NCBI GenBank assembly: GCA_049999805.1
Contig: JBNGIO010006037.1
Location: 1-64,000 of the forward strand
Direction: 5' to 3'
DNA: 64,000 bases
Source: Folioceros fuciformis
Taxonomy: Eukaryota
Shown: positions 10,703-64,000 of the stretch, piece after piece
Position numbering within the stretch: position 1 is the stretch's first letter
Layout of the letters: every line of letters starts with the position of its first letter
Position numbers and translations under genes: made by a program
The notes under the pieces: generated by a model
Told to the model about the DNA's origin: nothing
Databases searched by the model: none
The model's input: only the letters and a program-made list of their open reading frames with translations

Positions 10703-11228
10703 CGCTGCGAGTACGCGTCCAGGCGCTCCCGTCGGCGCGAGCCTGCGCGCGGCGAGGCTCCGGAGAAGGAAGGCGCGCCCTGCAGATGTCAGTCGCTAGC
10801 GGGCCTAGCCGAGACCCCTAGCTCCAGGCCAGACCTGCGCGATCGCAATCGCGCTCGCGGCGCTGAAGGTAGACCGCACCTTGCGCACCAACGGGGCCGG
10901 GTGGAGGCGGAATCGCAATAGAACCATGAGCCACTCCGAGGATTCTGCTGCAATTCATGCTGGGAAACGGCCCTAAGCACACGGGCCGACGAAGACGGCA
11001 GAAGACGCTGGCGCACCGAACCGCCTTCTTTCTTCTCATATTACACGTTGCGGTCCGGGCTTCGCGGAACCGGGCTCGGCGAGTAGTCGCGATCCGTGCC
11101 CTGTCGCGGAAACTCCAAGGATAGCCCTACCTCTTCAGTTTAGACTCTTTGAAGCGAGAATCCGGACTGACTATTTTCCATGGCCAGAATCGGCGACGGG
11201 AACAACATGGCTCAACTGTAAGTTATCC

Positions 11229-14200
11229 ATGCTGCTCGCTTGGCGCGTACATTCAAACTGGTCGGGTGGTGGTTCCATTAAAGCTCGTTTCGCAGGAAGA
11301 GATGGATCGTGTGGCGCTTGCGAAGATCGCCCTCAAGGATCCCTTCATTGTGCAGTTTCTGCTCCTGGCAAGGTTCTGGTTGGAGAAGATCTCCAGGCCG
11401 GGTTGGGTCGCTTCCCGACTGGCCATGGAGGGGCAACGTGGGAGGATGGGGCGCTGGAGCGGAGGCTGGGGGCCGTGCTGCGGCTGGATGAGCAGGGGCG
11501 GGTGCCGCCTGTGCATTTGTTTAAGACGGTGTTGCAGGCTTGCACGAAGAGGAAGGCCCTGGCCCAGGCCAGACAGGTGCACGGGATTTTGGCTAAACAT
11601 GGGCTGGAGGGTGATGAGCTTTTGAGCAATTTCTTGGTCACCACACTGATTGGGTGTGGAGGCTTTGCGGATGGAGTGGAGCTGTTTGGGAGGTTGGCTT
11701 GTCGGACGGTTTTGTCTTGGACAGCCATCATCTCAGGGTATAGTAATGCTGGGAAGTGTAGGGAGGCTGTTGCGTGTTTGGAGAAGATGAAGGAGGAAGG
11801 CGTGGAGCCGGATAAGTATACGTTTGTGAGCTTGCTGAAGGCATGCAGCAGGCTGGAAGACCTGGAAGAGGGCAGGCGGATCCATATGGCGGCCGTGGAG
11901 CATGGGTTTGGCTCAGACTTATTTGTGGGGAGCACGTTGATTAGTATGTATGCCAAGTGTGGGAGTATAGCGGATGCGCAGGAGGTATTTGATGGACTGT
12001 CTCATCGGAATGTTGTGTCGTGGAATGCAATGCTTGCTGCGTATGCACAGAAGGGGTTTGCAGAGAGAGCTTTGGAGATCTATGGGCAAATGCAGGAGGA
12101 AGGTGTCTGGCCGGACGGCCGCACCATTGTGAGTGTCCTGCAGTCCTGTGGCTCCCTTGCTGAAATGGAGGAAGGTGCCATTGTAGAGGGGCAAAAAGTC
12201 AAGGTGTTGGCTCTGAGGAAAGGGAGAGGAGTACATGCTGAAGCTGCCAGAATGGGGTTTGATTCAGACGTGTTTGTGGCTAACACGTTGCTTAGTGTGT
12301 ATGCAAAGTGTGGCAGCATGGCGGATGCCCAGCAGGTGTTTGACCGGTTGTCCTGCCGCACTGTAGTTTCGTGGACAGCAATGGTGGCGGCATGTGTGCA
12401 GCAGGATCAAGGAGAAATGGGCTTGCAAATTTACCATGAGATGAAAGAAGCAGGGTGTATGTTCAATTCTTGGACGCTTGTCAACGTCCTTAAAGCTTGT
12501 AGCAGCATTGCAGAAAGAGACCAAGGGGAGCTTGTGGCCGGGCGGAGGATCAAAATGTCCGGACTATGGAAAGGGAAGGAACTACATGCTGAAGTCAAGG
12601 GTGCAGGTCTTGTTTCAGATGCTTTTGTCCTGGAGGCTTTGATCCGCATGTATGTTACTTGTGGCAGCATCAGTGATGCACAGCGGGTTTTCGATGAATT
12701 TCCCAACTGCAATGAAGAAGCATGGACGGCTATACTTGCGGCATATGCCCAGCAAGGCCAAGGAGAGATAGTTTTGCGCTTGTATTTTCAAATGCGAGAG
12801 CTAGGTGTGGGACCGAGTGCTCAAACTTTTGTTCTTGCTCTACAGGCATGCCGTGCCCTTGCTGCAAAAGAGTTAAGCTCGCTAGTGTGTGGTCAAGCCG
12901 TCAAATTGCAGTCGCTGCAATTGGGAAAGGAAATTCATGCAGCAGCTGTCAGCATGGGTTTTGGATTAAACTTGTTTGTTGGTAGCTCTTTGATAAGTAT
13001 GTATGCAAGATGTGGGAGCCTTGCAGAAGCACAGCTAGCGTTTGATAGCTTGCCCAAGCATGACACAGTGTCGTGGACTGCCCTACTTGCAGCATATGCT
13101 CAGCATTGCCAAGGTGAGAAGGCCCTGCAAACATACTTGCAAATGAAAGAGGAAGGCTTCAAGCCAGATGGTCAGACCTTTGTTGGCCTTCTCCAGGCAT
13201 GTGCCACTCTTGCAGAAAAGGAAGTCAGCAATGTCCACGGCATCAAACTGGAGTCACTGCGCAAAGGAAGAGAACTACACTCTGAAGCTGTGAGAATGGG
13301 ATGGGAAACAAACGTGTTTGTTGGTACTGCGTTGATCAGTATGTATGCAAAGTGTGGGTGCATCCCGGAGGCAGAAGAAGTGTTTGAGCGATTGCCTCAA
13401 CAAAACGTCGTGTCATGGTCTGTGATGATTGCAGCATATACACAGCATGACCAAGGGGAGAAGGCCTTACAACTCTATAGTCAGATGCAAGGTGAAGGCA
13501 TGATGCCAGAGGAAACCACCTACCTGTCTGTCCTGGAAGCGTGCAGCAGGACAGGAGCCATAGCGGTGTGCTTGCAAGTCAACAGAAGTATTCTGGAACG
13601 AGAATTTGAGTGTAGCCACTACTTGACAAACACTCTCATTCATGCATACGGCAAATGTGGGAGCATGGTGGATGCTCGTCGTGTATTTGACTCACTTCCC
13701 CGGCCGGACGTGGTGTCGTGGAATGCACTGATTGCCGGGTACGCTCGACTAGGCGATTGTGAGACAAGCATCCGGTGTTTTGAGGAGATGTGTGATGCTG
13801 GTGTTGAGCCAGATGGTGTCACATTCATGGCACTTATCTTGGGATGCAGTCATGCTTGCATGGTGGACAAGGGGCTGATGTACTTCGACAGCATGACTAG
13901 GGATCATAAGATACCTGCAGAGCTGGACCATTATGTCTCGATGATCGATCTCGTCGGTCGGGCAGGGCTGTTCACCAAGGCAGAAGATCTGCTTCGTGAA
14001 ATGCCAATGCAACCTAATTTTAGTGTGTGGCTGTGTTTGCTGGGTGCCTGCCGGAATCATAGCAATGTGATGCTTGGAAGGCATTGTTTCAATTTTGCAA
14101 CTAGCCTTGAGCCAACACACGCCGCACCGTATGTGCTTATGTCAAGCATTTATGCTCAACTTGGCATGTGGGATTCCGCCAAGGAAATAGATGGGCTTAG

Positions 14201-14345
14201 AGAGAGAGCAGGTGTGCGAAAGACGCCTGGCCAGGCCTGGATTGAACATGAAGGAATAGTTCACACATTCCTGGTTGATGATCAAAAGCATCCGCACACG
14301 GCCCACCTGTATGCATTGCTGAAAGGTTTGAGCATGCAGCTGTGA
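11229..14345 (+). CDS. PLS-class PPR protein, E1-E2-E+ (PG box, no DYW deaminase); organellar RNA-editing factor
   Basis: Intronless 1038-aa ORF of P-L-S triplets (MYAKCGS...VVSW). Ends with E motifs and RKTPGQAWIE...HTFLVDDQKHP, then stops before any HxE/CxxC. Confidence 0.93.
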   Translation: MLLAWRVHSNWSGGGSIKARFAGRDGSCGACEDRPQGSLHCAVSAPGKVLVGEDLQAGLGRFPTGHGGATWEDGALERRLGAVLRLDEQGRVPPVHLFKTVLQACTKRKALAQARQVHGILAKHGLEGDELLSNFLVTTLIGCGGFADGVELFGRLACRTVLSWTAIISGYSNAGKCREAVACLEKMKEEGVEPDKYTFVSLLKACSRLEDLEEGRRIHMAAVEHGFGSDLFVGSTLISMYAKCGSIADAQEVFDGLSHRNVVSWNAMLAAYAQKGFAERALEIYGQMQEEGVWPDGRTIVSVLQSCGSLAEMEEGAIVEGQKVKVLALRKGRGVHAEAARMGFDSDVFVANTLLSVYAKCGSMADAQQVFDRLSCRTVVSWTAMVAACVQQDQGEMGLQIYHEMKEAGCMFNSWTLVNVLKACSSIAERDQGELVAGRRIKMSGLWKGKELHAEVKGAGLVSDAFVLEALIRMYVTCGSISDAQRVFDEFPNCNEEAWTAILAAYAQQGQGEIVLRLYFQMRELGVGPSAQTFVLALQACRALAAKELSSLVCGQAVKLQSLQLGKEIHAAAVSMGFGLNLFVGSSLISMYARCGSLAEAQLAFDSLPKHDTVSWTALLAAYAQHCQGEKALQTYLQMKEEGFKPDGQTFVGLLQACATLAEKEVSNVHGIKLESLRKGRELHSEAVRMGWETNVFVGTALISMYAKCGCIPEAEEVFERLPQQNVVSWSVMIAAYTQHDQGEKALQLYSQMQGEGMMPEETTYLSVLEACSRTGAIAVCLQVNRSILEREFECSHYLTNTLIHAYGKCGSMVDARRVFDSLPRPDVVSWNALIAGYARLGDCETSIRCFEEMCDAGVEPDGVTFMALILGCSHACMVDKGLMYFDSMTRDHKIPAELDHYVSMIDLVGRAGLFTKAEDLLREMPMQPNFSVWLCLLGACRNHSNVMLGRHCFNFATSLEPTHAAPYVLMSSIYAQLGMWDSAKEIDGLRERAGVRKTPGQAWIEHEGIVHTFLVDDQKHPHTAHLYALLKGLSMQL

Positions 14346-14571
14346 CTAAACGACGAACGAAATGAAAGTGCTTTTTCTTGACCAACAATTTCCAATTCAA
14401 ACCGCTGTCCTAAGATCTCAAACCAAGCTTTAGATACTGTACCCGTCTCCGTCAAGGGAACGTGATCGCGGGAATGAAAGCACGCAAGAGGATATGCTTG
14501 CCGAAATCCTCGTTTCCTCGCATGAAAAACTTCTTATGGACCGTTGGTTAGCCGGAAGGCGACGGGTTGAA

Positions 14572-15241
14572 TGAGACTGGCCCTGTTGCAGGAGTAAGGC
14601 AGCGTATAGAGGCTTCAGGGGGGATTGGCCTGTAGCAGGCGTAAGTGAAGGAGAGCCTTTGAAGAGATGGTTCGTACAGCTCAGGTCGCTGAAGTCGTTG
14701 GACATCGAGGGATCCCCCGAGCAGCACGGATTGGTGGGGACATCTATCGACCCTGGATTGAGCATGGTGCTGAGGACTCTGGGGGTTTCAAGTTTCTTCC
14801 CGCCGCCATGCAGACGTTTTGTGATCATAGACGCAGAGATGATGGTAGACTGTGGTCCTGACATTTGTTTGACAGTTTCAGCATCTCTGCAGAGTGAGAC
14901 TGCTCCTGGTCCAGGAGGGAGCGAGCGCAGATGAGAAGAGGTAGAGGCTTTGGGCGAAGTTGGGTTGTGGCCGGCGTGCTTGACGTGGAGCCTTTGAAGA
15001 AATGGTTCGCACAGCTACGATCGTTGAATTCATTGGACATCGAGGGATCCTCCCGAGCAGCACGGATTGGTAGAGACTTCTATCGACCCTGGATTGAGCA
15101 TGGAGCTGAGGAATGTGGGAGGTCCAAGTTTCTTCCCGCCGCCATGTAGATATTTTGTGACCGTCGACGCAGAGATGTTGGCTGTGGTAATCTGTGGTCC
15201 TGGTATGTTTCTTGTTTTTGACAGTTTCTGCAACTCTGCAG
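14572..15241 (+). repeat. Diverged tandem duplication, two units of ~325-345 bp
   Basis: Units ~14572-14894 and ~14895-15241 share GAGCCTTTGAAGA..TGGTTCG.ACAGCT, TTGGACATCGAGGGATCC, CTATCGACCCTGGATTGAGCATGG, AAGTTTCTTCCCGCCGCCATG, GACGCAGAGATG, TGTGGTCCTG and TTTGACAGTTTC...CTCTGCAGAGTG. Confidence 0.9.
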
Positions 15242-18200
15242 AGTGGCAGGAGGCCTACATGATGGACGCTGGGACGACCCCATTGATGCCTTGGACCTTC
15301 TGGTGCAGCGAGGGTCTTATGTGCCACCGTCTGTCGTGTATGATGTGCTCAAGGGGTGCATGGCAAAGAGAGATGTGGCTATGGGCAGGCGTGCTCATGC
15401 TCTTGCTCTTCAATCCGGTTATGAGTCGAACACGTTCTTGGCCAACCACCTCATCCGCATGTATGCCTCCCAGGGCACTTTGCAGGAGGCTACGCAGGTT
15501 TTTACCAGGCTTCCTGCACCGGACGCCTTCGTGTGGGCCTCTATTATTTCGGCACATTCTGAGTGTGGACAGGCCACGAAGGCTATAAGCCTGTATCATG
15601 AGATGCAGCAGTCTAGTACTATGGGGGATGATTATGTGACAGTGGCAGTGCTCAAAGCATGTGCTAATGCCGTGGACTTGGCTTCTGGAAAGCAGGTCCA
15701 TGCTGACATATTGAAGAGTGGGGTGAAGCCAAACACATTTGTTGGCAACTGCTTGATGGACATGTACACCAAATGTGGGAGCTTGGAGGCCGCCCGCCGT
15801 GTGTTTGATGCATTGCCAACAAGAGATGTGGTGGCATGGACTGCCATGATTGCAGGATATGCTCAGCACGGATTTGGTAACGAGGCTCTTAGACTGTATG
15901 CGAGGATGCAACAGGAGGGCATCACTCCGACCGATCGTGTGACGTTTGTCTGCCTCCTGAAAGCATGCGCCTGCGCTGGAGCTTTGATTGAGGGCAAGCA
16001 ACTTCATTTTCAGATTCAGCAAAGAGGCCTTGCTGAGGATCTGATGGTTGGCAACTGCCTGGTGGATATGTATGCCAAGTGTGGAAGCTTGGTGGATGCT
16101 AGGAATGTGTTTGACAGCTTGCCTGTCAGGAATGTTGTGACTTGGACTGCTATAATTGCGGGATATGCTCAGCATGGTCGTGGCGAAGAAGCTCTCTCTC
16201 TTCATATGAGTATGCAGCAGGAAGGAGGCACTATGCCCAACAGTTTCACACTCGTGTGTCTGCTGAAAGCATGTGCTGCCATTGGAGCTTTGCATGAGGG
16301 GAAAAAGCTCCATTCCCTCATTCAGGAACAAGGGCTGGAATCTGATGTGGTTGTTGGCACCAGCCTGGTGGACATGTACGCCAAGTGTGGGAGCTTGGAA
16401 GATGCACGAAGAGTTTTTCAGATGCTGCCCACCAAAAATGTGGTAACTTGGACAGCTATGATCTCGGCATGCACCCATCATGGGCTTGCCCAGGAGGCTA
16501 TTACCCTCTACGCCGGTATGCAACAGGGGGGCATCGAACCAGCCAATGCTGTTACGTTTGTGTCTCTCCTGAAAGCATGTGCCAGTGTGGGAGCTTTGTG
16601 TGATGGCAGGGAGATGCATTCCCAGATCCGGAAGAGGGGACTGGAATCTGATGTGGTTGTTGCCAACAGCCTGGTGGACATGTATGCTAAATGTGGAAAC
16701 TTGGAGGGTGCTCGCCTGGTGTTTGACAGATTAAGGACGAAAGATATAGTAACCTGGAATACTATGATCGCAGGATATGTTCAGAATGGGGACGGGCAAG
16801 AAGCACTGAGGCTTTACAGATGTATGCAGCAGGAGGGGATTTCTCCAGCTGATGGTGTCACATTCGTGTGCCTCTTGAAAGCTTGTGCCACTGCTGGGGC
16901 TTTGCCCGAGGCTAAGGAGCTGCAGATTCAGATTCAGAAAAGTGGTTTGGAATCAGATGTAATTGTTGCCAACGGTCTGGTGGACGTGTATGCAAAATGC
17001 GGGAGCTTGGAGGATGCTCGGACAGTGTTCGAGCGAATGCCCATTAAGGATATAGTCACCTGGAACGCCTTGATATCAGGGTACCTGCAGCATGGGCTTG
17101 CGCATGAATCTCTCGCGTTGTACGCACGTATGGAAGTAGAGGCCATAACTCAAGCCGATCATGTCACATTTATGTGCTTACTGAAGGCATGTGCAAGCAT
17201 TGGAGGCCTGAATCAGGGTAAGCAACTTCATGCCCGGATTCAGGACGCAGGCCTGGAAGGCGATGTTATGGTTGGCAGCTGCCTGGTGGACATGTACGCC
17301 AAGTGCGGGAGCTTAGAGGATGCTCGCAGAGCATTCGACAGGTTGCCCACACGAGATGTTGTCACATGGAACGCCCTGCTGAACGGCTGCAGCCAACACG
17401 GGGGCGGCAGGCTGGCTGTGCAGTGGTTCCAGGAGATGCAGCAACAAGGAGTTGAGCCTGACGAAGCCACTTTCACTTGCCTTCTCGTGGCTTGCACTCG
17501 TCAAGGCTTGGTAGATGAAGGTTTCCAGCTCTTCAATTCCATGCTCACGAACCACGGCGTGGCACCTAACGCTTACCACCTCAACTGCCTGGTGGATTTA
17601 CTTGCACGCGCCGGCCGCGTAGGCGAGGCTGAAAATCTGCTGCGGTCCATGCCCGTACAGGATAACGTAGTCGGATGGACATCCTTGCTCACGGCCTGCA
17701 GGACCTTCGGCGACCTAGACCGCGGCCAGCGATGCTTCAACATCCTCACCACAATGCAACCAGATCACGTCCCGGCGTACACCTTAATGGCCAACAGCTT
17801 CGCCGACGCTGGCCTATGGCAGGACGTGGCCAGGATGGAATCGTTGAGAATAACCGTATGTGCCTTCAAGAAGCCTGCCAGGGCGTGGATCGAGCTCAAC
17901 AGCAAGGTACACGCCTTCACTGTCGGCGAGGTGAGGGATGATATCTGCTCCAAACTATCCAGCGTGAACCTGCGCATCAAGCAGCTAGGAGGCCATGTTC
18001 CTCGTACGAACCTGGTGCTCAAGCCAGCTTCGGACGCCGAAAAGGAAGACGCTCTGTGCGGGCACGCTGAAAAGTTAGCTCTGGCATACGGCCTCCTCAA
18101 CACTCCGGACGGCAGCAGCCTGCTGGTCACCAAGAATCTCCGCATGTGCGATGACTGCCATAGCGGCACCAAGGTCCTGTCCAAGATCGAAAATCGGGAG

Positions 18201-18272
18201 ATCATAGTCCGAGACGCCCGCCGTGTCCACAGGTTTGTGGATGGAGTCTGTTCTTGTGGAGACCGCCATTAA
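14931..18272 (+). CDS. PLS-class PPR protein with a DYW:KP ('DRH'-ending) deaminase domain; candidate U-to-C RNA-editing factor
   Basis: Main exon 15242-18272 has about 22 PLS motifs, E1, E2, KKPARAWIE, HAEKLALAYGL, KNLRMCDDCH and HRFVDGVCSCGDRH*. The inferred first exon 14931-15145 joins in frame via a GT-AG intron at 15146-15241; the start is less certain than the body. Confidence 0.92.
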
Positions 18273-18544
18273 TCCGAGCACTGAGCCTGACGATCAATTG
18301 AAACATCAATGAAGATGAAATGAAAATCAACGACGATCAATCGGACCTCGTGTTCCCCATGCGCTCCGTGCCCGTCGCTCGGCGCATGGTGTGGCTACCG
18401 CCATGGTTGTGAGCAAGGAAGCTTAAAGACTCTTGAAGCCGGTGATTGCGACGATCATCGCTTCCTCGCGCCGTCCCGACGTGAGCAGCCAGCGTGAAAA
18501 TGAATCAGAACCGTATGTATATCAAGGGATGAATACGTACCAGG

Positions 18545-30566: not shown

Positions 30567-32433
30567 CTAAATGTCCATGATCTTGATGACAGAAGCAACA
30601 CCAATACGATGCAGGGCCACCACCGAATCGCCATGCTTACAGAGACCCCTCTTCACAGCATACTTGATAGCATCGTCAAGAATCTCATCAGTCGTGTCCG
30701 AGTCAGTGGCTTTGGCAGATCCCTCCGCAAGCAGAGGGATCAACCCTCTACACACAAGGCTGTGACGAGCCGGCGACTCTTCGCTGCAGGACCACTCCAG
30801 GCTGTCTGTTGTCAGAACTGGGACAGCAACAGATAATATGGGTACCGACGGCCGGTACTTTGCCACCAGTTTTGCCGTGCTGCCACCCCGAGTTAACACC
30901 ACAATCAACGTAGCCCTGACTTTGTTGGCTGTTCTCACGGCAGATGAGGCCAAACTCTCCAGAGGGCTCATAGGCATGGGTGCTGCCTTCATAATCTCTT
31001 TGAAGATAAAAGCGTAGTCAAGAGAAGCCTCTGCCTCCTGACAAATGCGAGCCATCACCCTCACAGCTGTCTCCGGATACGCTCCTGCTGCTGTCTCTCC
31101 ACTGAGCATCACAGCGTCAGTTCCATCAAGCACAGCGTTACCCACATCCGTGGCTTCAGCCCGCGTTGGACGAGGAGATTTGATCATGGACTCCAGCATC
31201 TGAGTAGCTGTCACCACCGGCTTCCCTGCAGAGTTGCATTTGTATATCATCATCTTCTGCGCCAGGAAAATCTTCTCTGTAGGAATTTCCATTCCCAAAT
31301 CTCCTCGAGCGACCATGATTCCATCAGTTTCGCGCAGAATATCATCAAAATTGACCAATCCTTCTTGGTTTTCCACCTACGGAAAACAAACACCCAAAGA
31401 CAGCTCAGATTTCAGCACCAGCCAAGCGTCCTGGAGTGTACGACAATGCAACCATGAGACCTGCTGGCCAAGGAAAGGTATCTGTACCTTCGAGATGATC
31501 TGGATAGTCTTCGCGTGCTTGCCAAGCAATTGCCTAATCTTCACAATGTCCTCCCCCTTGCGTACGAAAGAGGCAGCAATAAAGTCAATCTTGTTGGGAA
31601 TACCCCAGATGGTGATATCATCAACATCCTTCTGGGTAACAGTTGGCAGGTCCACAATGATCCCAGGCAAATTCACATTCTTCCTCTCCCCCAGGACTGC
31701 GGTATTCTCACACCGAACTTTCACAACACCCTTGTCAGGGTGAGTAGATACGACAATCAAGGTAATGGTGCCGTCAGCACACAAAATCACGTTCCCTGGC
31801 TTCAAATCATTCGCCAACTTCTTGTAGCTCATGGCTATGGTGTTCTCATCACCAACAACGTCATAATCCGTTGTGATGGTGATCTCCTTGTCTCGTACAA
31901 GCTGCACGGGCTTCCCACCCTTCAACAACCCAGTTCGAATTTCTGGACCCTGGCACCCGACAATAGGAGCCACAATGAGAACTTCCCCACTCAAGAACAA
32001 TAAGACCACATTTCAAGATACAACCACCTAACAAAGGATCCGGCACAAAACTTCACACCCACGTTACCTAACAGCAGCACAAACAAAAGCACAAGCATCC
32101 CAAAAAAACCCTGCCGTCTCTGACACTCCCACCACTGCCCAGCAATGACCCAGAGACGCACACCTTGGTATCCAGCAACACCGCGCACATGACCTGAGTA
32201 GACGCCATGGCCTTCTTCAAATTGTCCAAAGTCTCCTGATGGTAATCGTAGGACCCGTGGGAGAAATTGAACCTCGCCACATTCATCCCAGCGCGCAGCA
32301 GGCCCTCCAGGACGGGCACCTCCCGCGACTTAGGGCCCAGGGTACAGATGATCTTGGTCTTGTTGAGGGGCACCGAGGTCGGCGCGACGTCATTGGACTT
32401 GTTGAGCAGCTCCTGTATGTTGATGGTGGCCAT
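30567..32433 (-). CDS. PK: Pyruvate kinase, cytosolic type, 3 exons
   Basis: KTKIICTLGPKSR, ARFNFSHG, DTKGPEIRTG, ERKNVNLPG, MVARGDLGME, TQMLESM and AVMLSGETA. No transit peptide. Confidence 0.97.
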
Positions 32434-32982
32434 GGCGGCTGCGGCTGAACGCCTGTGCTTCAAGGAAACTCCCCGCGGTCCGCAGCCTGCCCTCGGCTCC
32501 TCCACAACCAGCCCCTTCTCGTATCCGGACAGCCCCTCCCCGTGCCAAAGCTTGATGGCAAGCTGGCCCTGCTCCAACGCAACGCAAGGCTGTTGCAGGA
32601 AACGACACCACGCCGAGGCCCGCTGATCCAAGCCCGAAAAGGTCGCAAAGTGTCCAAGCCGACACAGCGCTGTGAATTGGGAGACTGATGCGGCCCTTGT
32701 TCTGATTCCTCGGAATCTCCTCCCAGGACGTCCGCGTTTTTTCCATGTCTTTTCCCTTCTGCAAAAGAGTTTTCCATCAATCGTGTAAACAGAACCTCGC
32801 GCAGGGCAGGTAAACTACAATCTAACTCTAACTACAGGCGTACGTAAAGTACACATTATTTCGTAATTACCAGGATTAAAACTGCTTGTAAGTGACAGGG
32901 TGAGGAGCTAGTGACGACCGGCTTGATGAGGAAGGAGCATTATCCAGTCGTGTCTAGAGTTGTGCGCCGCGAGCTTCTGGCT

Positions 32983-33831
32983 ATGGCGGCGACCTCCTCC
33001 GCGTACCTCAGTCTGGGGAGCTGCGCGGCGGTGTGCATGCTGCCCCAGGCGCAGGTCTCGGGCGGGGGGGCCTGCTGCGGGGCCTTGGAAAGGCCGTTTC
33101 TAGGGCTCAGTCTGAGGTGCGGGAATGCGGGGATGCATACGGCGGCGGCTGGGGCGGTGGGGCTGAGAGTGCACGCCAATGCAGCGGCGGCGGTGGAGTT
33201 GGCGGAGTCGGATGGGTCCAAGGTTCAGCGGCTGAAGCTGGCTTATCTCACCAAGGTGGTGCCGGCGCTGAAGGAGGAGTTCAAGTACACCAACGACATG
33301 GAGGTGCCGAAGGTGAAGAAGGTGGTGGTGAACTGCGGCGTCGGGGAGGCGGCGCAGAATGCTAAGTCCTTGGAGTCTACGGTGCGGGATATCTCGCTCA
33401 TTACCGGGCAAAAGCCGATTGTGACCAGGGCGCGGAAGGCTATTGCCGGGTTCAAGCTCCGGAAGGGAGTGCCAGTGGGAGTGGTCCTTACGCTGCGCGG
33501 TGAGCTTATGTACTCATTTCTGGACAGGCTGCTGAACCTGGCCCTGCCCCGGACGCGGGATTTTCAGGGGGTGAATGCGTATGGCTTCGATGGCCGGGGG
33601 AACTACACGCTGGGAATGCCGGAGCAGAGCGTGTTCCCGGAGATCAAGTTCGAGAACATCGACAGGCAGAGAGGGATGGACATCTCCATCGTCACAACTG
33701 CCAAGACAGACCAGGAGAGCCAGAAATTGCTCAGCTTGTTAGGGATGCCTTACAAGGAAAACTCTGTCAAGGCCATCAGGTTGCGGAAGAAGGGTAAGCT
33801 GATCGGCAAGGGTGGGAAAAGGCGCAGATAG
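32983..33831 (+). CDS. RPL5: Plastid 50S ribosomal protein L5 (nuclear-encoded), intronless
   Basis: Ala/Ser-rich transit-like N-terminus, then [42 protein letters not shown] and [11 protein letters not shown]. Confidence 0.95.
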
Positions 33832-53982: not shown

Positions 53983-55263
53983 CTATGCCATGATCTTGGC
54001 TGACTTCAGATACAAGCTGTCCATGACCTTGCTGATATTAGATATGGTGTCCAAGGTCGCAGGGTAGATCCCATCAGGCTTGATATCGTCAAAAATAATG
54101 AGACAACCAGCTCCTTGATCCAAAGTCCCGGAAAACTTCTTGTCCAAAATCATCTGGGAGAGCTTCTTCTCTACAGCGTCTATCGGAAGCCCAATAAGGT
54201 CAGAGATGTGTGAAATCTCGACCCTTGAAAAGGGCTCAATCAGACGGCAGAGGTTTTGCTCCAGTAGTGTGTCATACAGTGATGACAGATGACGATGAAC
54301 AATGGGATCCTCTTCTAATTGATCCCTGTAGGCATTCAAAGCCTCTTCAAAAGCCTTGAGAGAGCGTTTAGCATATGCCTCTGCCACTGCGGACATTGCA
54401 TCAAGCTCCGGGCCATTGTATTTGAGCCCTGCCTTGGACGATATCAAGCCACCGACATCCTCCGCTTGATTGGTCATGATTTTACACAGCAGCATATACT
54501 TGAGCGCAAATACCGCTCGAGAATCCTCTAGGGCATTGAAAGCCTCAAACGCTTCGAAGAAGTAACTGAAGCCGGTCTTGTAGTCTTTCTCCTCGGCGTG
54601 GAGAATCCCGCTCTGGAGATCAATAGTTCCCTGTTGCGCTGGCGGCACATAAATGGCATTGGCTGCCGTCCTGGCAGCCGTCAAAGCAGCTTTGGCCTTA
54701 GCCAAATTCCTCAAGGAGAAGTGCAACTTGCTTTCCAGCAAGTCGATATCCACCAGCAACAATTTGTCATCCAGGCGCCGCACTTCCCTAACTAGGTTAG
54801 GCAACAGAGACAAAACCTCCGAAAACTCCTTGCTCTCCATCAACAGAGCTGCCAGCCTCGCCTCCACTCTTTGCCGAAGGAAGGTCCTCTTCTCAACCCG
54901 AGTCCACTCCACCATCTCGCGGCATAGCGAAATTTGCAGCGCCGTGGTCTCCGGGATCTTAGCTACTGCATCAATAATACCTCTCACAATTTTGGCAGTC
55001 TTGGCCTTGGGAATGAGCAGGAAGAAGGGACGCAACTCCGTGAGCAGACTCCTGAGATCCTCTCCCCTTTTCTCCGCTGCCAGCAGGTCAGACAGAGACG
55101 CAATTGCCACCTCCTTCACCCGGATAGCTTCACTTGTGGCCGAAGGATGCTGAATGATCTGGTGAAACAGCTGAATGGCCTTAGCGGGATCGACATCCCG
55201 AATCTCCTCCGCTTGCGCAAGCGACTCCGCGTTCGGCACCAACGACGAGGTGGACGCAGCCAT
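53983..55263 (-). CDS. RPN6: 26S proteasome non-ATPase regulatory subunit RPN6 (PSMD11), intronless CDS
   Basis: PKAKTAKIVR, EKRTFLRQRVE, LDDKLLLVDI, ARTAANAIY, EKDYKTGFSYFFEAFE and the PCI domain LLEQNLCRLIEPFS...LSQMILDKKFSGTLDQG. Confidence 0.97.
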   Translation of the reverse strand: MAASTSSLVPNAESLAQAEEIRDVDPAKAIQLFHQIIQHPSATSEAIRVKEVAIASLSDLLAAEKRGEDLRSLLTELRPFFLLIPKAKTAKIVRGIIDAVAKIPETTALQISLCREMVEWTRVEKRTFLRQRVEARLAALLMESKEFSEVLSLLPNLVREVRRLDDKLLLVDIDLLESKLHFSLRNLAKAKAALTAARTAANAIYVPPAQQGTIDLQSGILHAEEKDYKTGFSYFFEAFEAFNALEDSRAVFALKYMLLCKIMTNQAEDVGGLISSKAGLKYNGPELDAMSAVAEAYAKRSLKAFEEALNAYRDQLEEDPIVHRHLSSLYDTLLEQNLCRLIEPFSRVEISHISDLIGLPIDAVEKKLSQMILDKKFSGTLDQGAGCLIIFDDIKPDGIYPATLDTISNISKVMDSLYLKSAKIMA

Positions 55264-56683
55264 GGCTGCCTTCCTTGAGCAGCTGGCGCTCGAACACCAA
55301 AAGACCAGCACCTCTTCCTGACACCGGCACCCTAATTAAAGCACCAGCGTGTAGGTGCCGAGCCTAGGGTGCGGAGTCTCTGTTGCTTCGCTTCCTGATC
55401 AGCCAGACGTAGCGTAAGCTGCGTGCAAGTGTTCCCCTTCATCACCTAGTTAGCGTGTATTCAAGTTATGTTAAGCCGTTGCTAGTTGTTTGTACTGTTT
55501 GCGCCATACTGTAGTTGGCCGCGCATACGTCGTGTGATCGGTATCGGGATTTTGCAAGGCTCACGACTCCGTGCCCACATGAGTCCAAACGTAGGGAAGA
55601 ATCCTGATTCTGTCTCTACCCCAAGCCTGATCTGTCGGCGAAGAAAACGGTACGCCCTGGACAACCAAAGTCTGTATTGCAAGAGGCACAGTCTCCTCTT
55701 ACGATGAACCTCAAACCTCTAGTAGGTGGAACTGAGAGGTTAAGAAGAGGATGCGATTCCAGGGCGTGAGAAACACGCGCAGGCCGCAACAGAGCAGTAG
55801 CTATATGAGCACAGAAACACAACATATAGCTTGCAAGAAGGTGAAGGAGGGAGGAATATAGGGAATGCACATAATGCAGTGTTGAACGGATTCTGTGTTG
55901 CCAACGAAGCTTGCAACATCAACAGCAAGAAGAATTCGTGGAAGGCACACTTGATGCAATATTGCAGAGAATGCTGCCATCTGCTCCAGAGGTGTCCAGA
56001 TTTGCCAAATGACGGAGACATCGTTGTACACGATCCGCTTGCATTCCTCAACCTATCCGCTAGCTCCAGGACCACTAATGGAGTGGTCTGGTACGCGGAC
56101 AAGACGGCGCCTGTGATGTGGAAGAGACTGCAAATATGCTTAAATGTGCGGTCTCTACCAACCCGAGGTCGAGCGGCTGGATGAGAAGCAGTGGAAAGGA
56201 AGCATTGGCGCGGAGGAGGAGCAACAAGGTTGAGCGCATGGTAGAAGACTGAGCTGCATGCCAGCCTTGGCGCGCGACTACCTGGAGCTGCCGTAGGCGG
56301 GGAGAGGAAGGGCCTGTAGCTCGGCCCACGGTTGTAACGTGGTCCACTACAGTCGTCTGCTTACGAGGACAGGAGCCGGGATCGGAGTAAAGCCAGGGTA
56401 GTGCCATGGCAGACACTGATCACGGCCAGGGATGGTGCTGGAGTGGGGCGCACAATCGCTCACTCCGCGGACTCGGCTGCAGCAGGAGCAGCGACGGCGC
56501 GCGCCGGTGCCAGGGGCGGGGCAGGGGCTGGTGCCAGGCCTCGGGGGAAGGCGCACCGGGGCGCGTCTCTTCGCTCAGCTGGCGCTCAACCTACTGCTCT
56601 TCGTAAGCTGGTGGCATTCTTTCTACTCCGTGCAGCCGGGGAGCGGTCGGCAGGGGCTGGAGGAGCGTGGTGAGGAGCGGGTC

Positions 56684-59185: not shown

Positions 59186-62100
59186 TCAGATCCAAGGTTG
59201 CCATCCCACCCACGTGCGGCCATAGACGTTAGGGTCAGTGGCCTGGTCCAGCAAACAATCAATTTGTTCCTGCACAGACTCGCACCTCTCTTTGATTACA
59301 CGGGCGCGTATATTCCTACTAGGGGCTCCGCGGACGATGCCTTCCAGTGCGGACATGTACGGCTTGCCTGCGTGGATGGAACTCCGAAGCTCAGCGACGG
59401 TGATTTCTGCAGGGTTCCACAGATCCAGCTTTCGATGGGCATGTTCAATCTTCAGCTCCACATGCTGCTGCGCATGACTCGGGGATCCCTGGCCGCCCTC
59501 CCCCAGCTCTTGCAAAGCATCGGCGGGCGCAGCCCCCCTTCGAAGGGTAGCCGTGCGTGCGGCTTCTGTCTGCCAGTCGACCAGCGGCTCTTTCACGAAG
59601 ATATCCAGGACAGCGCCTACGTCTTCCCTGCGGGCATGGAGTGCCGACATAGCTCGGACCATGTCATTCCGCAGTAGAGCTATCGCATCCAGAGGCCGCA
59701 GGTAATCCAGCATTTGCCGGGTCAGCCTGAATGGTATCAGCTCAGGGACGGGCAGAAGAATGACTGCTGTGCCAAAGCTGTACCCGAAGTCGATAGGGAT
59801 CAAGGACCCGCGGTCCATGTCAATCAGCATGTTTCCAAGGTGCCTGTCCCCGACTCCCGCCACATAACAACACACACTTACCACTGACAGGCTTCGAGCA
59901 AACTGAGACCGCATAGAGAGGTATGCCTCGGCACTTGTTGACAACTTCGACATTCCTTGTCTGAGGGCATCAGAGGGCATTTGGGAGTGCAGAAATGCCA
60001 TTTCCTGGGCGACGTCTCTGTACTCTAGAGTGGCATAGGAGTTGGCGTAGCATGCAGGAAGGTTCTGTGATCTTCCCTTTTGGGTGATCCAATCCACGTA
60101 CTGCTTAGTCAGACTCTGGAAGAGCATGTCACCATTTTGCTGGTAGCCATTAGAAGACACGGCCTTCGAGGTCAACCCATCTTTTATTACATCCTGTAGC
60201 ACTCTGGTGTGCTCCACGAACTGAAGCAGACCACAACGCCTGGACACTGGGATAACAGCAAAGGTGGGCACCAATAATTCTCTCCTGGAACATGCTGAAT
60301 CCCTCCCCAATATGCCGTTTATGACTTCAAATAGTTGCTGTATCCTTTGATCCAGACGTAGATCTTCACCTCCCTTCACAACAAATTTGTACTCCTTTTC
60401 ATCCGACCCTCTCATAGTAAGAATCTTGGGACGTTGCTTTGAGGACAAGGTCACCACCGTCTGTTCAAAACCAACCAGCTTTACGTGCCTTTCAGGGTCA
60501 GGCTTTTGTAGTCCACCATACTGTCCAGGAACTTCGACGGCATGACTTCCACGTACACCATCTGGACGCGACATCCCGTGTGCCTGTGCAAGTGTTTCCA
60601 GGCTTCCGTACTGGTCAAACTCCGCCATCCATCTGGAGAGGGACGCCAGACTCTGATTTCCAGCTGGCAGCACCTGCACAGCTTTCTGCAGGTTGGAAAC
60701 GACATCCTTCGTTGAAGCTGTGAATCCTCCCTCGTCCATTCCTAGCAGTTTTTCACCCCTTTCTCCAAAGGCCTTCAAGACTTGTTTGCTGTAGCTTTGA
60801 GCGAATTTGGTGTTGTATTCTCCTGACAAACGAGTCTCTTTCTTCATTTCCTGCAAGTCAAGAGAATCTTCAAAGACCTGGCAAAAAACCTCTTGTGCTT
60901 TCTTCCTGTCACCAGTGATTAAACAGTACTTTATCCGAGAAAGACCATCTTGCAAACGTTGCTCCGGAAAAGTTAGATCCTCTACAGCCCTGGCAAAACC
61001 CTCTTGAGTTGGATCTCTCAGATAAAGTGCTAACTTTTCAGTCCTTCGCGTCCCAGTGCTCTTGAAGTCGCCTTTGCTAACTTGAAATTGATGATACAAT
61101 GCTCGAGGATACAACCTTGCCACGTCTTCCAGAAGCTTCACAAAAACAGCTCCCACGTCTTCATCCATTGTAGCCAGCATCTGTGGTATCCAAGCAACGA
61201 AGAGCCATTTTGGAATATCCTCAGCAAAGCTCTGAAACTCCTGGATTGTGTCAGGGTACTGAGTAACCAGAAAGAGAAGTCTTGCCACACTCTGCTGGCC
61301 CTGCGAAGAACTGTCCAGAGACACGGCTTTGCTAAGATTTCCCACAATTAATCTGGGGTATGCTGATGCAGGTGGAAGGCCCATACCACCACTTCCCTCT
61401 CTTAACACCTCCCTTACTTGGTCCCCCCATTTCAAATCCTTACTGGCTTTCAGCAGCTCATCACAAAAGGCCCCAAGTCTGTAGAAGGCCTTCGCTGAGT
61501 TTCGTACCGAACACTTAGCACTACCTGCACTCTTACCGAAATCTGCAAGCTTACCTATTAACTCGTTTAAAACTGCAAACGTGGACCCTAACCTTGATCC
61601 ACCGTCGTTGAGAGCACTTCTGTTAACTTTACTTCTCGGCAAAAGCTCCAGTAAGGACCATCCTATCTGAGACAAGATGTTTGCCTCATTCAGTTTCAAT
61701 CCGATGATCCACTTGGGGTCAATCGACGCTCCTCTTCTCTGTGCCGTGTGCTGAATGTATTGAAGCACCTGGAACAAAAACTACGCATGAGACTAAAACT
61801 TAATGAGAATTAGTGGCTCGACCGTACACGCGTCCTGTGACAAGAGGGACAAACCTTCTCACGTAGTGCTACACCTTCCTTGACGTTAATACGCTGAGTC
61901 CTGTCTGCTTGGAGGTTTTGCAGCTTTACAAGTCTCTTGAAGGACTGGTAGTCATGGTCATCATTCCCTGTTTCAGCATGTTTCAAAGCTTGATACTCCT
62001 GCATATATCCCTGCCACCGGATGAGAACGTTGACAGTAGTCAGCAAAAACAATTTGCTCCCAGTCGCACAGCACGTCTGCTGATTTCTCACTTGGAGAAC

Positions 62101-64000
62101 ATGGACGAAAATAATGTTTCGAGTTAGTAACGCAAAACAGCGCACTTTGTTTTAGAGCTAGTCGTGTGACATTGTGAAAAATCAATGGAAATGAGTCAGT
62201 TCAAGTTTTCACGAACCTTGGCAACTGTGTAAGCCCCAATATCCGTAAGTCCTTTTGCCGCCTCAAGATAGATGTGTGCTCTTTCAGCATCAAGTTGGGT
62301 GGCAAGGAAGAGTCCTGACTGACGCGGAGCAATGTCAGGGACACGTTTATTGAGCATACCCTGAATTTTATTGAAAAATAAGAGACGCCTTTTGACAACG
62401 TCATCCCATGCTTCAACTCCCCCCATCTGAGCTGAAGGCCATCGGTTTTTCCATTTCATGAGCAGTCTGCCTCAAAAACACGAGATTGTCAGTAAGGTAA
62501 CACAGATGAGGCAGAAGAAGAACAACAAACGCTGAGAAGGCTCGTACTGATGCNNNNNNNNNNNNNNNNNNNNNNNNNNNNNNNNNNNNNNNNNNNNNNN
62601 NNNNNNNNNNNNNNNNNNNNNNNNNNNNNNNNNNNNNNNNNNNNNNNNNNNNNTACTGATGCAGCTCATCTTGATTCTCCCTTGTCAGATACTCGATAAA
62701 CTCCTCATGTTCAACAATCTTTTGTAGCTGCTGCACCTGAAGATGCCGGCTCCCAACTGCCAAAGGATGCAGCCGAGTCCAATTCCTTGTGAAAATTTTG
62801 TAACATTCTGTCAAGTAGAGACGAGCACGATCAAATTGATCACTAGCAGTTGCTAGATGCAGAAGCTCGATGCTAAAGTTTTCAAGCAGAAAAGCCTCCC
62901 TTGCTGGATTTTCCAGTGACTTCTGAACAAATTTCATCAGCTGTGAGTGAAAGCTTGTAAGTTTTGCAGCTCCTCTTACAAACAATCCTAAGTGTGGCTC
63001 CTTAAGCTTCGAGTCCCACAACTTTTCAACTGTCTGATCATCAATTTCCTCTCCTATCTCGTAAATTGATTCCTGCGTCAAAGTTTGCCAGTTGTTCAAC
63101 TCCATCAAGCATGTGCGACGTTGTCGATCCCATATATCAATCTCAGATGTGGAGATTCGACCACCACCCAATGCTGTCGTAGAATCTGGATGGCAGCTTT
63201 AGTGAGATCGTCAGCAAAAAACGAACTCAAGTGAGACAACATCCCTCAGTACTCCCGAGAGCGTAACGACTTGTCTCACAGGACAACAGATTCCAACAGC
63301 AGCTGGGGGCCTTACCAGTATGGCTCTCCAGCTGATCAACTTGGTCGAGATACGTATCGTAAAGAGCTAAAGCCCTGCTGTAATCACCTTCAAGCTGTGC
63401 TTCTAACGCATGCTTGGTTCTGTTCAGCTTGGCAATATGTTTTTGGTACAGTGCCAGGACTATGTCTGCCTCCCCAACAGACTCATACAGATGAGCAAGC
63501 TCCAACCATGCCTCATCCACAGAGGGTTGAGAATGCGATACTTGTCCTACTATCCCCTTGTGTCGTTTGCTGTTTTGTACAGGGGCAGGTCCTCCGTCAT
63601 AGCAGACCTGACTTTCGAGAAGCATTATGCCAGAGTGAAAGTTGCGGGATTTAGAGCTTGCACATCCTACAAGCTCTGGTCTTATCCAGATGCTCGGATC
63701 CTCCAGGCAAAGAGAGTGTAAGCAAGCAACAAATGAGATTCCATGATGCGTTTGTGCTAAAGCAGCTTCAATTCCAAGTTTCAACTGAGCCTTCAGTCCC
63801 TGTCCTGTATCTTGGATTTGATTTGCAGGAAGAGACAGAACTGCTCTACTTAATATCTTAAAGGTGAGCCTTGCAAATGTTGTGTCTCTCCCTGCCAAAG
63901 CTGCTAGCAATTTTATAACGTCCTCATTCTTTATTTGAATGTCCGGTAACTCCCCTGCCATAACCACATGGTCATACGCATTACGTGATAAAATAAGGAA
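59186..64000 (-). CDS. PRKDC: DNA-dependent protein kinase catalytic subunit (PIKK), 3' part (FAT, kinase, FATC); 5' end lies outside the window
   Basis: [16 protein letters not shown]...[81 protein letters not shown]...[14 protein letters not shown] and FATC [22 protein letters not shown]. Confidence 0.95.
62554..62653. other. Assembly gap (100 N) within the DNA-PKcs gene
   Basis: Run of N; both flanks carry TACTGATGC. Confidence 0.99.

Follow-up and report, generated by a model that had tools for sequence, protein, structure and literature searches.

Results

Gene content and architecture of the locus

The window (the whole stretch of DNA analysed, 64 kb in length) is nuclear and gene-dense; besides RPN6 and the C-terminal part of DNA-PKcs, it encodes a pyruvate kinase and a protein of the ribosomal L5 family. 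Compared with its best named relatives, the DNA-PKcs fragment shows 51-57% identity regardless of whether these come from liverworts, lycophytes, ferns, mosses or gymnosperms, so that the lineage is close to none of these groups. Two pentatricopeptide repeat (PPR) genes lie 900 bp apart in the window. The upstream one (11229-14345) encodes a protein that stops 41 residues into a PG-type DYW domain and is therefore an “E+” protein, and a tblastn search found no DYW-domain remains behind it beyond 14342; the E+ subgroup is described as enriched only in hornworts (PMC13386178). The downstream one, which is the subject of this work and whose features all lie on the forward strand, encodes a PPR-DYW:KP protein in an open reading frame (ORF) at 15243..18272, consisting of 1009 codons plus a TAA stop codon (18270-18272).

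Four PPR families of Pfam (PPR, PPR_1, PPR_2 and PPR_3) match the protein encoded by this ORF, the lowest E-value being 3e-115, as do E_motif and DYW_deaminase. When segmented by motif anchors, the whole protein has the architecture S1-(P1-L1-S1)x6-P2-L2-S2-E1-E2-DYW:KP. The PLS array (residues 64-808, 15432..17666), delimited by regular expressions and motif lengths together with the Pfam PPR families, starts with an S1 motif, continues with six P1-L1-S1 triplets (giving seven S1 motifs in all, with P1 and L1 motifs between them) and ends with P2-L2-S2. The triplets, with lengths of 36, 35 and 31 residues, produce a regular periodicity of 102 residues, while the segmented motifs at the end of the array measure 35 (P2), 36 (L2), 32 (S2), 34 (E1) and 34 (E2) residues. 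In a tblastn comparison of the 64-kb window, the internal PPR repeats are 52-58% identical to one another. The E1 (residues 809-842) and E2 (residues 843-876) motifs, at 17667..17870, are covered by Pfam E_motif PF20431 (823-884), were recovered by the segmentation and form two helix pairs in the structural model described below. Tandem P1-L1-S1 triplets followed by P2-L2-S2-E1-E2, which were found here both with Pfam and by segmentation, are what defines a PPR editing factor of the PLS class. The DYW:KP deaminase domain closes the protein (133 residues, 877-1009, from K1 P2 to D131 R132 H133 in domain numbering; 17871..18269).

Gene start, 5' leader and probable transcripts

The PPR-DYW:KP frame is open from 15222 and, without splicing, is closed by an in-frame TGA at 15219. 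Between 15222 and codon 40 this open frame contains no in-frame ATG, and the first one, at codon 40 (15360..15362), would give a protein of 970 residues beginning with MAKRDVAMGRR. We take this ATG to be the most likely start codon. In the predicted paralogues the N-terminus lies 4-50 residues ahead of the position equivalent to residues 1-30 of our protein, and they start at most about 30 residues away from this ATG, so that a start at codon 40 is short but not absurd. No long targeting peptide is recognisable at the N-terminus.

Evidence for the structure of the 5' leader comes from comparing two sequencing runs of the same organism. In the DNA run (X1), a single contig of even depth covers 10800-16077 and is continuous across 15069/15241. 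The other run (X3), which is presumed to be RNA although no run is recorded as such, has uneven depth and is broken into pieces at 11296-14385, 14468-15069 and 15241-16077, followed by further pieces up to 18491; one contig thus ends at 15069 and the next one starts at 15241. Contigs from two related organisms (about 91% identical; runs X7 and X17, likewise presumed to be RNA) also start at 15240/15241, and one low-depth contig bridges the site. These breaks point to a probable GT-AG intron of 172 nt in the 5' leader (15070..15241, GATTG/gtagag...ctgcag/AGTGG), preceded by a probable 5' non-coding exon with several short upstream ORFs (14468..15069, from the X3 contig). At the other end, the X3 contig running from 17285 to 18491 delimits a probable 3' UTR (18273..18491). 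The X3 contigs over 15241-18491 are interrupted at other places than those of the DNA run, which is consistent with transcription of the gene, if X3 is indeed RNA.

The inferred splice junction (15069/15241) reads TGA in the PPR frame. In-frame 5' exon models combining a donor at 15069, or its duplicate near 14733, with acceptors at 15224, 15241, 15243 or 15248 all led to a stop or to the wrong frame, and no N-terminal extension of the ORF could be built from the combinations tried. Within the leader there are also two tandem copies of one segment (14625-14896 and 14960-15245), which are 81% identical to each other, as well as six or more upstream ATG-ORFs. A previous reading of the sequence alone (hereafter the sequence-only reading) had called the editor intact; given the missing ATG before codon 40, the TGA at the junction and the upstream ATGs, this description applies to the PPR array and to the deaminase domain, and not demonstrably to the N-terminus.

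Sequence and predicted fold of the DYW domain

Translation of 17868-18269, the C-terminus of the 1009-codon frame, gives KKPARAWIE...CGHAEKLALAYGLL...TKNLRMCDDCH...CSCGDRH, and contains all the motifs that had been pointed out by the sequence-only reading (KKPARAWIE, HAE, NLRMCDDCH and CSCGDRH). That reading had placed the domain at 17868-18272; the deaminase domain is indeed there, starting at the second lysine (17871) and spanning 133 residues once the numbering is anchored on the conserved lysine as K88 and on the methionine before CxxC as M92 (PMC11845758, PMC9478123). The Pfam profile DYW_deaminase (PF14432) covers residues 917-1007 with an E-value of 2e-34 (117.7 bits, against a cut-off of 24), and the 134-residue domain piece on its own is matched at 5e-36, in both cases far beyond chance.

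In the anchored numbering, the key positions of the domain are K1 P2 A3 R4 A5 W6, H65 A66 E67, the stretch K88-N-L-R-M92-C93-x-x-C96-H97, C127-S-C129 and the terminal G130 D131 R132 H133. The HAE triplet (H941-A942-E943, 18063..18071) provides the zinc-ligand histidine, the KP-type alanine and the catalytic glutamate; K964 (18132..18134) is the active-site lysine, K88 in KP numbering; and C969-D-D-C972 (18147..18158), with M968 (M92) just before it, forms the CxxC zinc-ligand pair. H941, E943, K964, C969 and C972 are all invariant in an alignment of 65 rows. The HxE and CxxC zinc ligands are intact, as had been proposed.

When aligned with HMMER to solved PG-type domains, the domain matches the synthetic PPR-DYW protein 9kfx with an E-value of 4e-43 and OTP86 (7o4e) with one of 3e-34, and DYW1 (7w86) could also be aligned; its identity to PG-type domains is 45-46%. 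These alignments contain a gap of four residues exactly where 9kfx and 7o4e carry K/S-H-P, which corresponds to the DxSHP segment reported missing from the sequence alone. The gap falls at the start of the region corresponding to the gating domain of OTP86 (H837-G891; Takenaka et al., PMC7611903). A tblastn search with the domain found no second complete DYW domain within the 64-kb window.

The AlphaFold2 model of E2+DYW, built from the same 65-row alignment, has a mean pLDDT of 93.1 and a pTM of 0.82. In a Foldseek search of the PDB, its first matches were 9kfx (E-value 1e-18, TM 0.87), 7o4e/7o4f (TMt of 0.81-0.87 for 7o4e) and 7w86 (rmsd of 0.9 over 109 columns), with bacterial deaminases ranked far behind the DYW domains. 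The model has the predicted cytidine-deaminase fold with the gating insertion and a C-terminal CxC (CSC) zinc-binding motif. Within the deaminase fold, the domain retains its zinc ligands (H941, C969 and C972), the catalytic glutamate (Glu943) and the active-site lysine (Lys964).

Classification of the domain

The KP subclass is recognised by the replacement of Pro-Gly by Lys-Pro in the N-terminal box (PMC11845758, PMC11332814) and by an alanine, or a cysteine, in place of serine after the zinc-binding histidine. Hayes 2024 (PMC11332814) lists three conspicuous features for it: the KP dipeptide, an alanine where HxE otherwise has serine, and the loss of 3-4 residues from the region of the PG box. 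The present domain shows all three (HAE, the four-residue gap and KKPARAWIE), and its length of 133 residues agrees with the typical length of KP domains (132-133 residues).

To place the domain phylogenetically, a quick IQ-TREE analysis was run on the DYW domain of our protein and those of 105 homologous proteins (106 rows and 144 columns). With KP and PG labels assigned from motifs, the tree is divided by a split with SH-aLRT support of 100 into 42 KP-like rows, among them our protein, and 64 other rows. The KP-like side is formed by 10 DRH, 4 GRP, 20 other HAE-type, 7 HCE rows and a single HSE row, while the other side contains 63 HSE rows, nearly all ending in DYW or DFW, and one odd row. 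Within the KP-like side, our protein belongs to a group of 19 rows (SH-aLRT 94) in which every DRH row (10) and every GRP row (4) is found along with 5 further rows, and lies just outside a core of 15 DRH/GRP rows (support of 96). Its closest relative in this set is 72% identical over 140 columns, and the nearest relatives in the database, which are 62-68% identical over the last 160 residues, end in DRH or GRP.

Based on these data, the protein almost certainly belongs to the DYW:KP subclass, as the sequence-only reading had suggested, and the clustering with DYW:PG domains that would have spoken against this did not occur. All the sequence criteria tested, together with the tree, support its probable assignment to the DRH type. 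DRH and GRP are the two hornwort subgroups of KP proteins, while KP domains in general are found in hornworts, lycophytes and ferns (Ichinose et al. 2022, PMC9478123); the distribution over hornworts, ferns and some lycophytes previously attributed to the DRH and GRP variants is therefore that of KP domains as a whole, these two endings being assigned to hornworts specifically in the literature consulted. The DRH and GRP endings of the relatives, the neighbouring E+ gene and the DNA-PKcs comparison are consistent with a hornwort, which we consider the most probable origin of the DNA.

Constraint and relatives

Contigs from the related organisms align to the coding part of the gene with no gaps, both over 16989-18290 (114 differences) and over 17311-18151 (76 differences), while seven indels are found at 18416-18475, after the stop codon, in the probable 3' UTR. 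A coding part free of gaps, as opposed to the indels that follow the stop, argues for selection on the reading frame.

A search for orthologues among short proteins returned 197 matches at E<=1e-40 from 1885 candidates, the best of them only 59-61% identical, so that no near-identical orthologue is present in the protein collection searched. Searching a library clustered at 50% identity with the DYW domain yielded 2591 cluster representatives at E<=0.001, and the best 150 of these comprise 116 HSE, 15 HAE, 12 HCE and 7 other domains. Very large numbers of PPR genes are reported for four hornwort genomes: A. agrestis, Notothylas orbicularis, Paraphymatoceros pearsonii and Phymatoceros phymatodes have 1,583-2,308 PPR genes each, with the DYW:KP subgroup included (PMC13386178). 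The gene described here is therefore not rare. It is one more member of the KP proteins, a very large family that is already catalogued (the DRH and GRP types were described in 2020), and since no feature of its sequence distinguishes it, it opens no new question by itself.

Discussion

Proposed function and RNA target

Taken as a whole, this nuclear gene, most probably from a hornwort, is likely to encode a PLS-class PPR protein that acts in RNA editing and belongs to the DRH subgroup of the DYW:KP subclass. By analogy with the family, the protein would be imported into the plastid or the mitochondrion, where its P and S motifs would read about 22 nucleotides of one transcript. In the PPR code, T or S combined with D specifies G, T or S combined with N specifies A, N with D specifies U, and N with N specifies C more than U. 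Apart from the first P1 motif, which has A/D, every P and S motif carries canonical code residues (T/N/S combined with D/N). Applying this code, the predicted target would read roughly 5'-U?nUGnYAnAAnUUnUUnGUnY, with the S2 motif at position -4 and the edited base at position 0, and the KP domain would act on the pyrimidine located four nucleotides downstream of the position read by the last motif.

The native reaction is probably the conversion of U to C, judging from what is known of the family. Designer KP domains catalyse U-to-C editing in E. coli and in human cells, depending on HAE and CxxC (PMC9478123), and K88 is essential for this activity in designer KP proteins (PMC11845758). In the mechanism proposed, the lysine attacks C4 of the uridine, leading to a Schiff-base conjugate, and in bacteria the designer reaction stalls at a protein-RNA crosslink (PMC11332814). 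Three of the seven designs were active in U-to-C editing, namely KP2 and KP3 (GRP type) and KP6 (fern type), whereas KP1, whose design draws mainly on DRH proteins, does not belong to the three that edited in E. coli (PMC9478123). A 2025 paper (PMC11845758) states that it is not yet known what natural KP proteins catalyse, and our text search, covering part of the literature, found no characterised natural KP enzyme.

Alternative readings

The alternative that best survives these data, although we regard it as unlikely, is that of a catalytically idle or decaying gene, transcribed but poorly translated, or of a non-editing copy in a hugely expanded family. The 5' end lends itself to such a reading, since no in-frame ATG precedes codon 40 and the leader combines the 81% tandem duplication, the six or more upstream ATG-ORFs and the TGA at the inferred junction; additionally, the DRH-based KP1 is absent from the active designs and our protein lies outside the 96-supported DRH/GRP core. 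Against these observations, however, stands an open frame of 1009 codons in which every invariant catalytic and zinc position is kept, together with the confinement of indels in the related organisms to the region directly after the stop. The predicted paralogues also start near the same point, and the probable transcript contigs span the entire ORF.

Quite improbable, in our view, is that the protein is an editing factor with native C-to-U activity, or with activity in both directions, instead of U-to-C. The domain clusters firmly with KP and not with PG domains in the tree, its K88, HAE and deletion of xHP are those of the KP subclass, which has been reported only from lineages with U-to-C editing, and A116 and V119 are the states that raise U-to-C editing in KP6u. 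Nevertheless, every residue required for canonical zinc-dependent deamination is kept, and KP6 itself also catalyses C-to-U editing, both in vitro and in human cells, with few substitutions being enough to switch the direction. The states G64, V113 and H133, which raise C-to-U editing in KP6c (PMC11845758), are present as well, and position 6 holds a tryptophan, as in PG boxes, and not a cysteine.

That the domain might be a cytidine deaminase of the canonical DYW:PG type in which a few residues happen to have changed is hardly credible and was rejected, because the 45-46% identity to PG-type domains and the shared fold are outweighed by KP in place of PG, HAE, the four-residue deletion, M92, the DRH end and the 100-supported split from the HSE/DYW domains.

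Significance of a natural DRH-type gene

If the U-to-C reading is followed, it is possible, though we hold it doubtful, that a native DRH-type protein, unlike the consensus designs that stall at the lysine-RNA crosslink and unlike KP1, could complete the U-to-C reaction at its own cognate organellar site; in that case turnover would have been demonstrated for a natural U-to-C enzyme for the first time, with this protein or the product of any sister gene. In a weaker variant, the protein could work together with the product of the DYW-less E+ PPR gene encoded 900 bp upstream. Because the U-to-C chemistry is unresolved and the literature consulted describes no characterised natural KP enzyme, every intact natural KP gene merits consideration, both for biochemical work and as a source of programmable U-to-C tools. 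The practical value of the present one is that it offers a completely defined natural test case, for which a target motif is predicted and E943 and K964 can serve as control residues.

Comparison with known systems

Among the closest known systems is the “DRH” subgroup of hornwort KP proteins, on which the designer KP1 is based (Gerke et al. 2020, cited after Ichinose et al. 2022, PMC9478123). Our protein shares with its members the KPAxA box, the missing xHP, HAE, the KNLRMCxDCH motif and the CSCGDRH end, as well as a domain of 133 residues placed behind P2-L2-S2-E1-E2. It differs from most DRH relatives at KP position 6, where it has W instead of C, and has CDDCH in place of CNDCH.

The designers KP2 and KP3 (GRP type) and KP6 (fern type) have HAE, CxxC, K88 and M92 in common with our protein (PMC9478123, PMC11845758, PMC11332814). 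They are, however, consensus constructs carried by a synthetic (P1L1S1)3 array, and their activity has been demonstrated, whereas the protein described here is natural, has seven S1 motifs, is of the DRH type and is known from sequence alone.

Finally, the canonical DYW:PG factors (OTP86, 7o4e/7o4f; the synthetic PPR-DYW protein, 9kfx; and DYW1, 7w86) resemble our protein in the deaminase fold with its gating domain, in the two zinc sites, in the HxE and CxxC motifs, in the conserved lysine (K915 in OTP86) and in a CxC near the C-terminus. They differ from it in that our protein replaces PG by KP, HSE by HAE, the valine before CxxC by methionine and the terminal DYW by DRH, and lacks four residues at the start of the gating domain (the H837 region of OTP86).

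The upstream PPR gene

A second PLS-class PPR gene lies on the forward strand 900 bp upstream of the KP gene (11229-14345), and its DYW domain, of the PG type (KTPGQAWIE...DDQKHP...), stops after 41 residues, the product being thus an 'E+' protein devoid of a deaminase. At the 5' end of this gene there is a canonical forward-strand intron (CAACT|gtaagt...cgcag|GAAGAG, 11218-11295), within which the ATG of the open frame (11229) falls, and the alignment of a contig from X3 (a run of the same organism, only guessed to be RNA) begins at 11296, directly after it. Splicing out this intron places a TGA in the PPR frame at the junction, as is also seen at the probable splice junction of the KP gene.

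Leader and array of the KP gene

The leader of the KP gene, its probable 5' non-coding region, carries a tandem duplication (14625-14896 and 14960-15245, 81% identity over 286 nt), each copy containing a short ORF starting from an ATG (MVRTA...) and a GT...AG pair. The PPR array is overlain by a reverse-strand ORF of 454 aa (15255-16619) that itself matches no family and in all likelihood arises as a by-product of the repetitive codon composition.

Neighbouring genes

Three housekeeping genes, in a gene-dense and compact region, encode the C-terminal part of a pyruvate kinase (30567-31376, reverse strand), a ribosomal L5-family protein with an N-terminal extension of ~125 aa (32911-33831, forward) and the proteasome subunit RPN6 (a single ORF of 442 aa, 53983-55311, reverse). 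The C-terminal exons of a DNA-PKcs homologue (59186-64000, reverse; PI3/PI4-kinase, FATC, FAT and DNAPKcs_CC5 domains) have liverworts, lycophytes, ferns, mosses and gymnosperms as top named plant relatives, angiosperms being absent from the 120 matches listed.

A separate clade with HCE

On the KP side of the DYW domain tree, seven database proteins (P0030, P0033, P0034, P0042, P0048, P0052 and P0089), named Adiantum proteins among them, form a separate clade (SH-aLRT 95) in which HCE replaces HAE, the box is of the WKKPGKA type and the C-termini are odd. A Cys alternative is mentioned in PMC11845758, and it is such a Cys that this clade shows.
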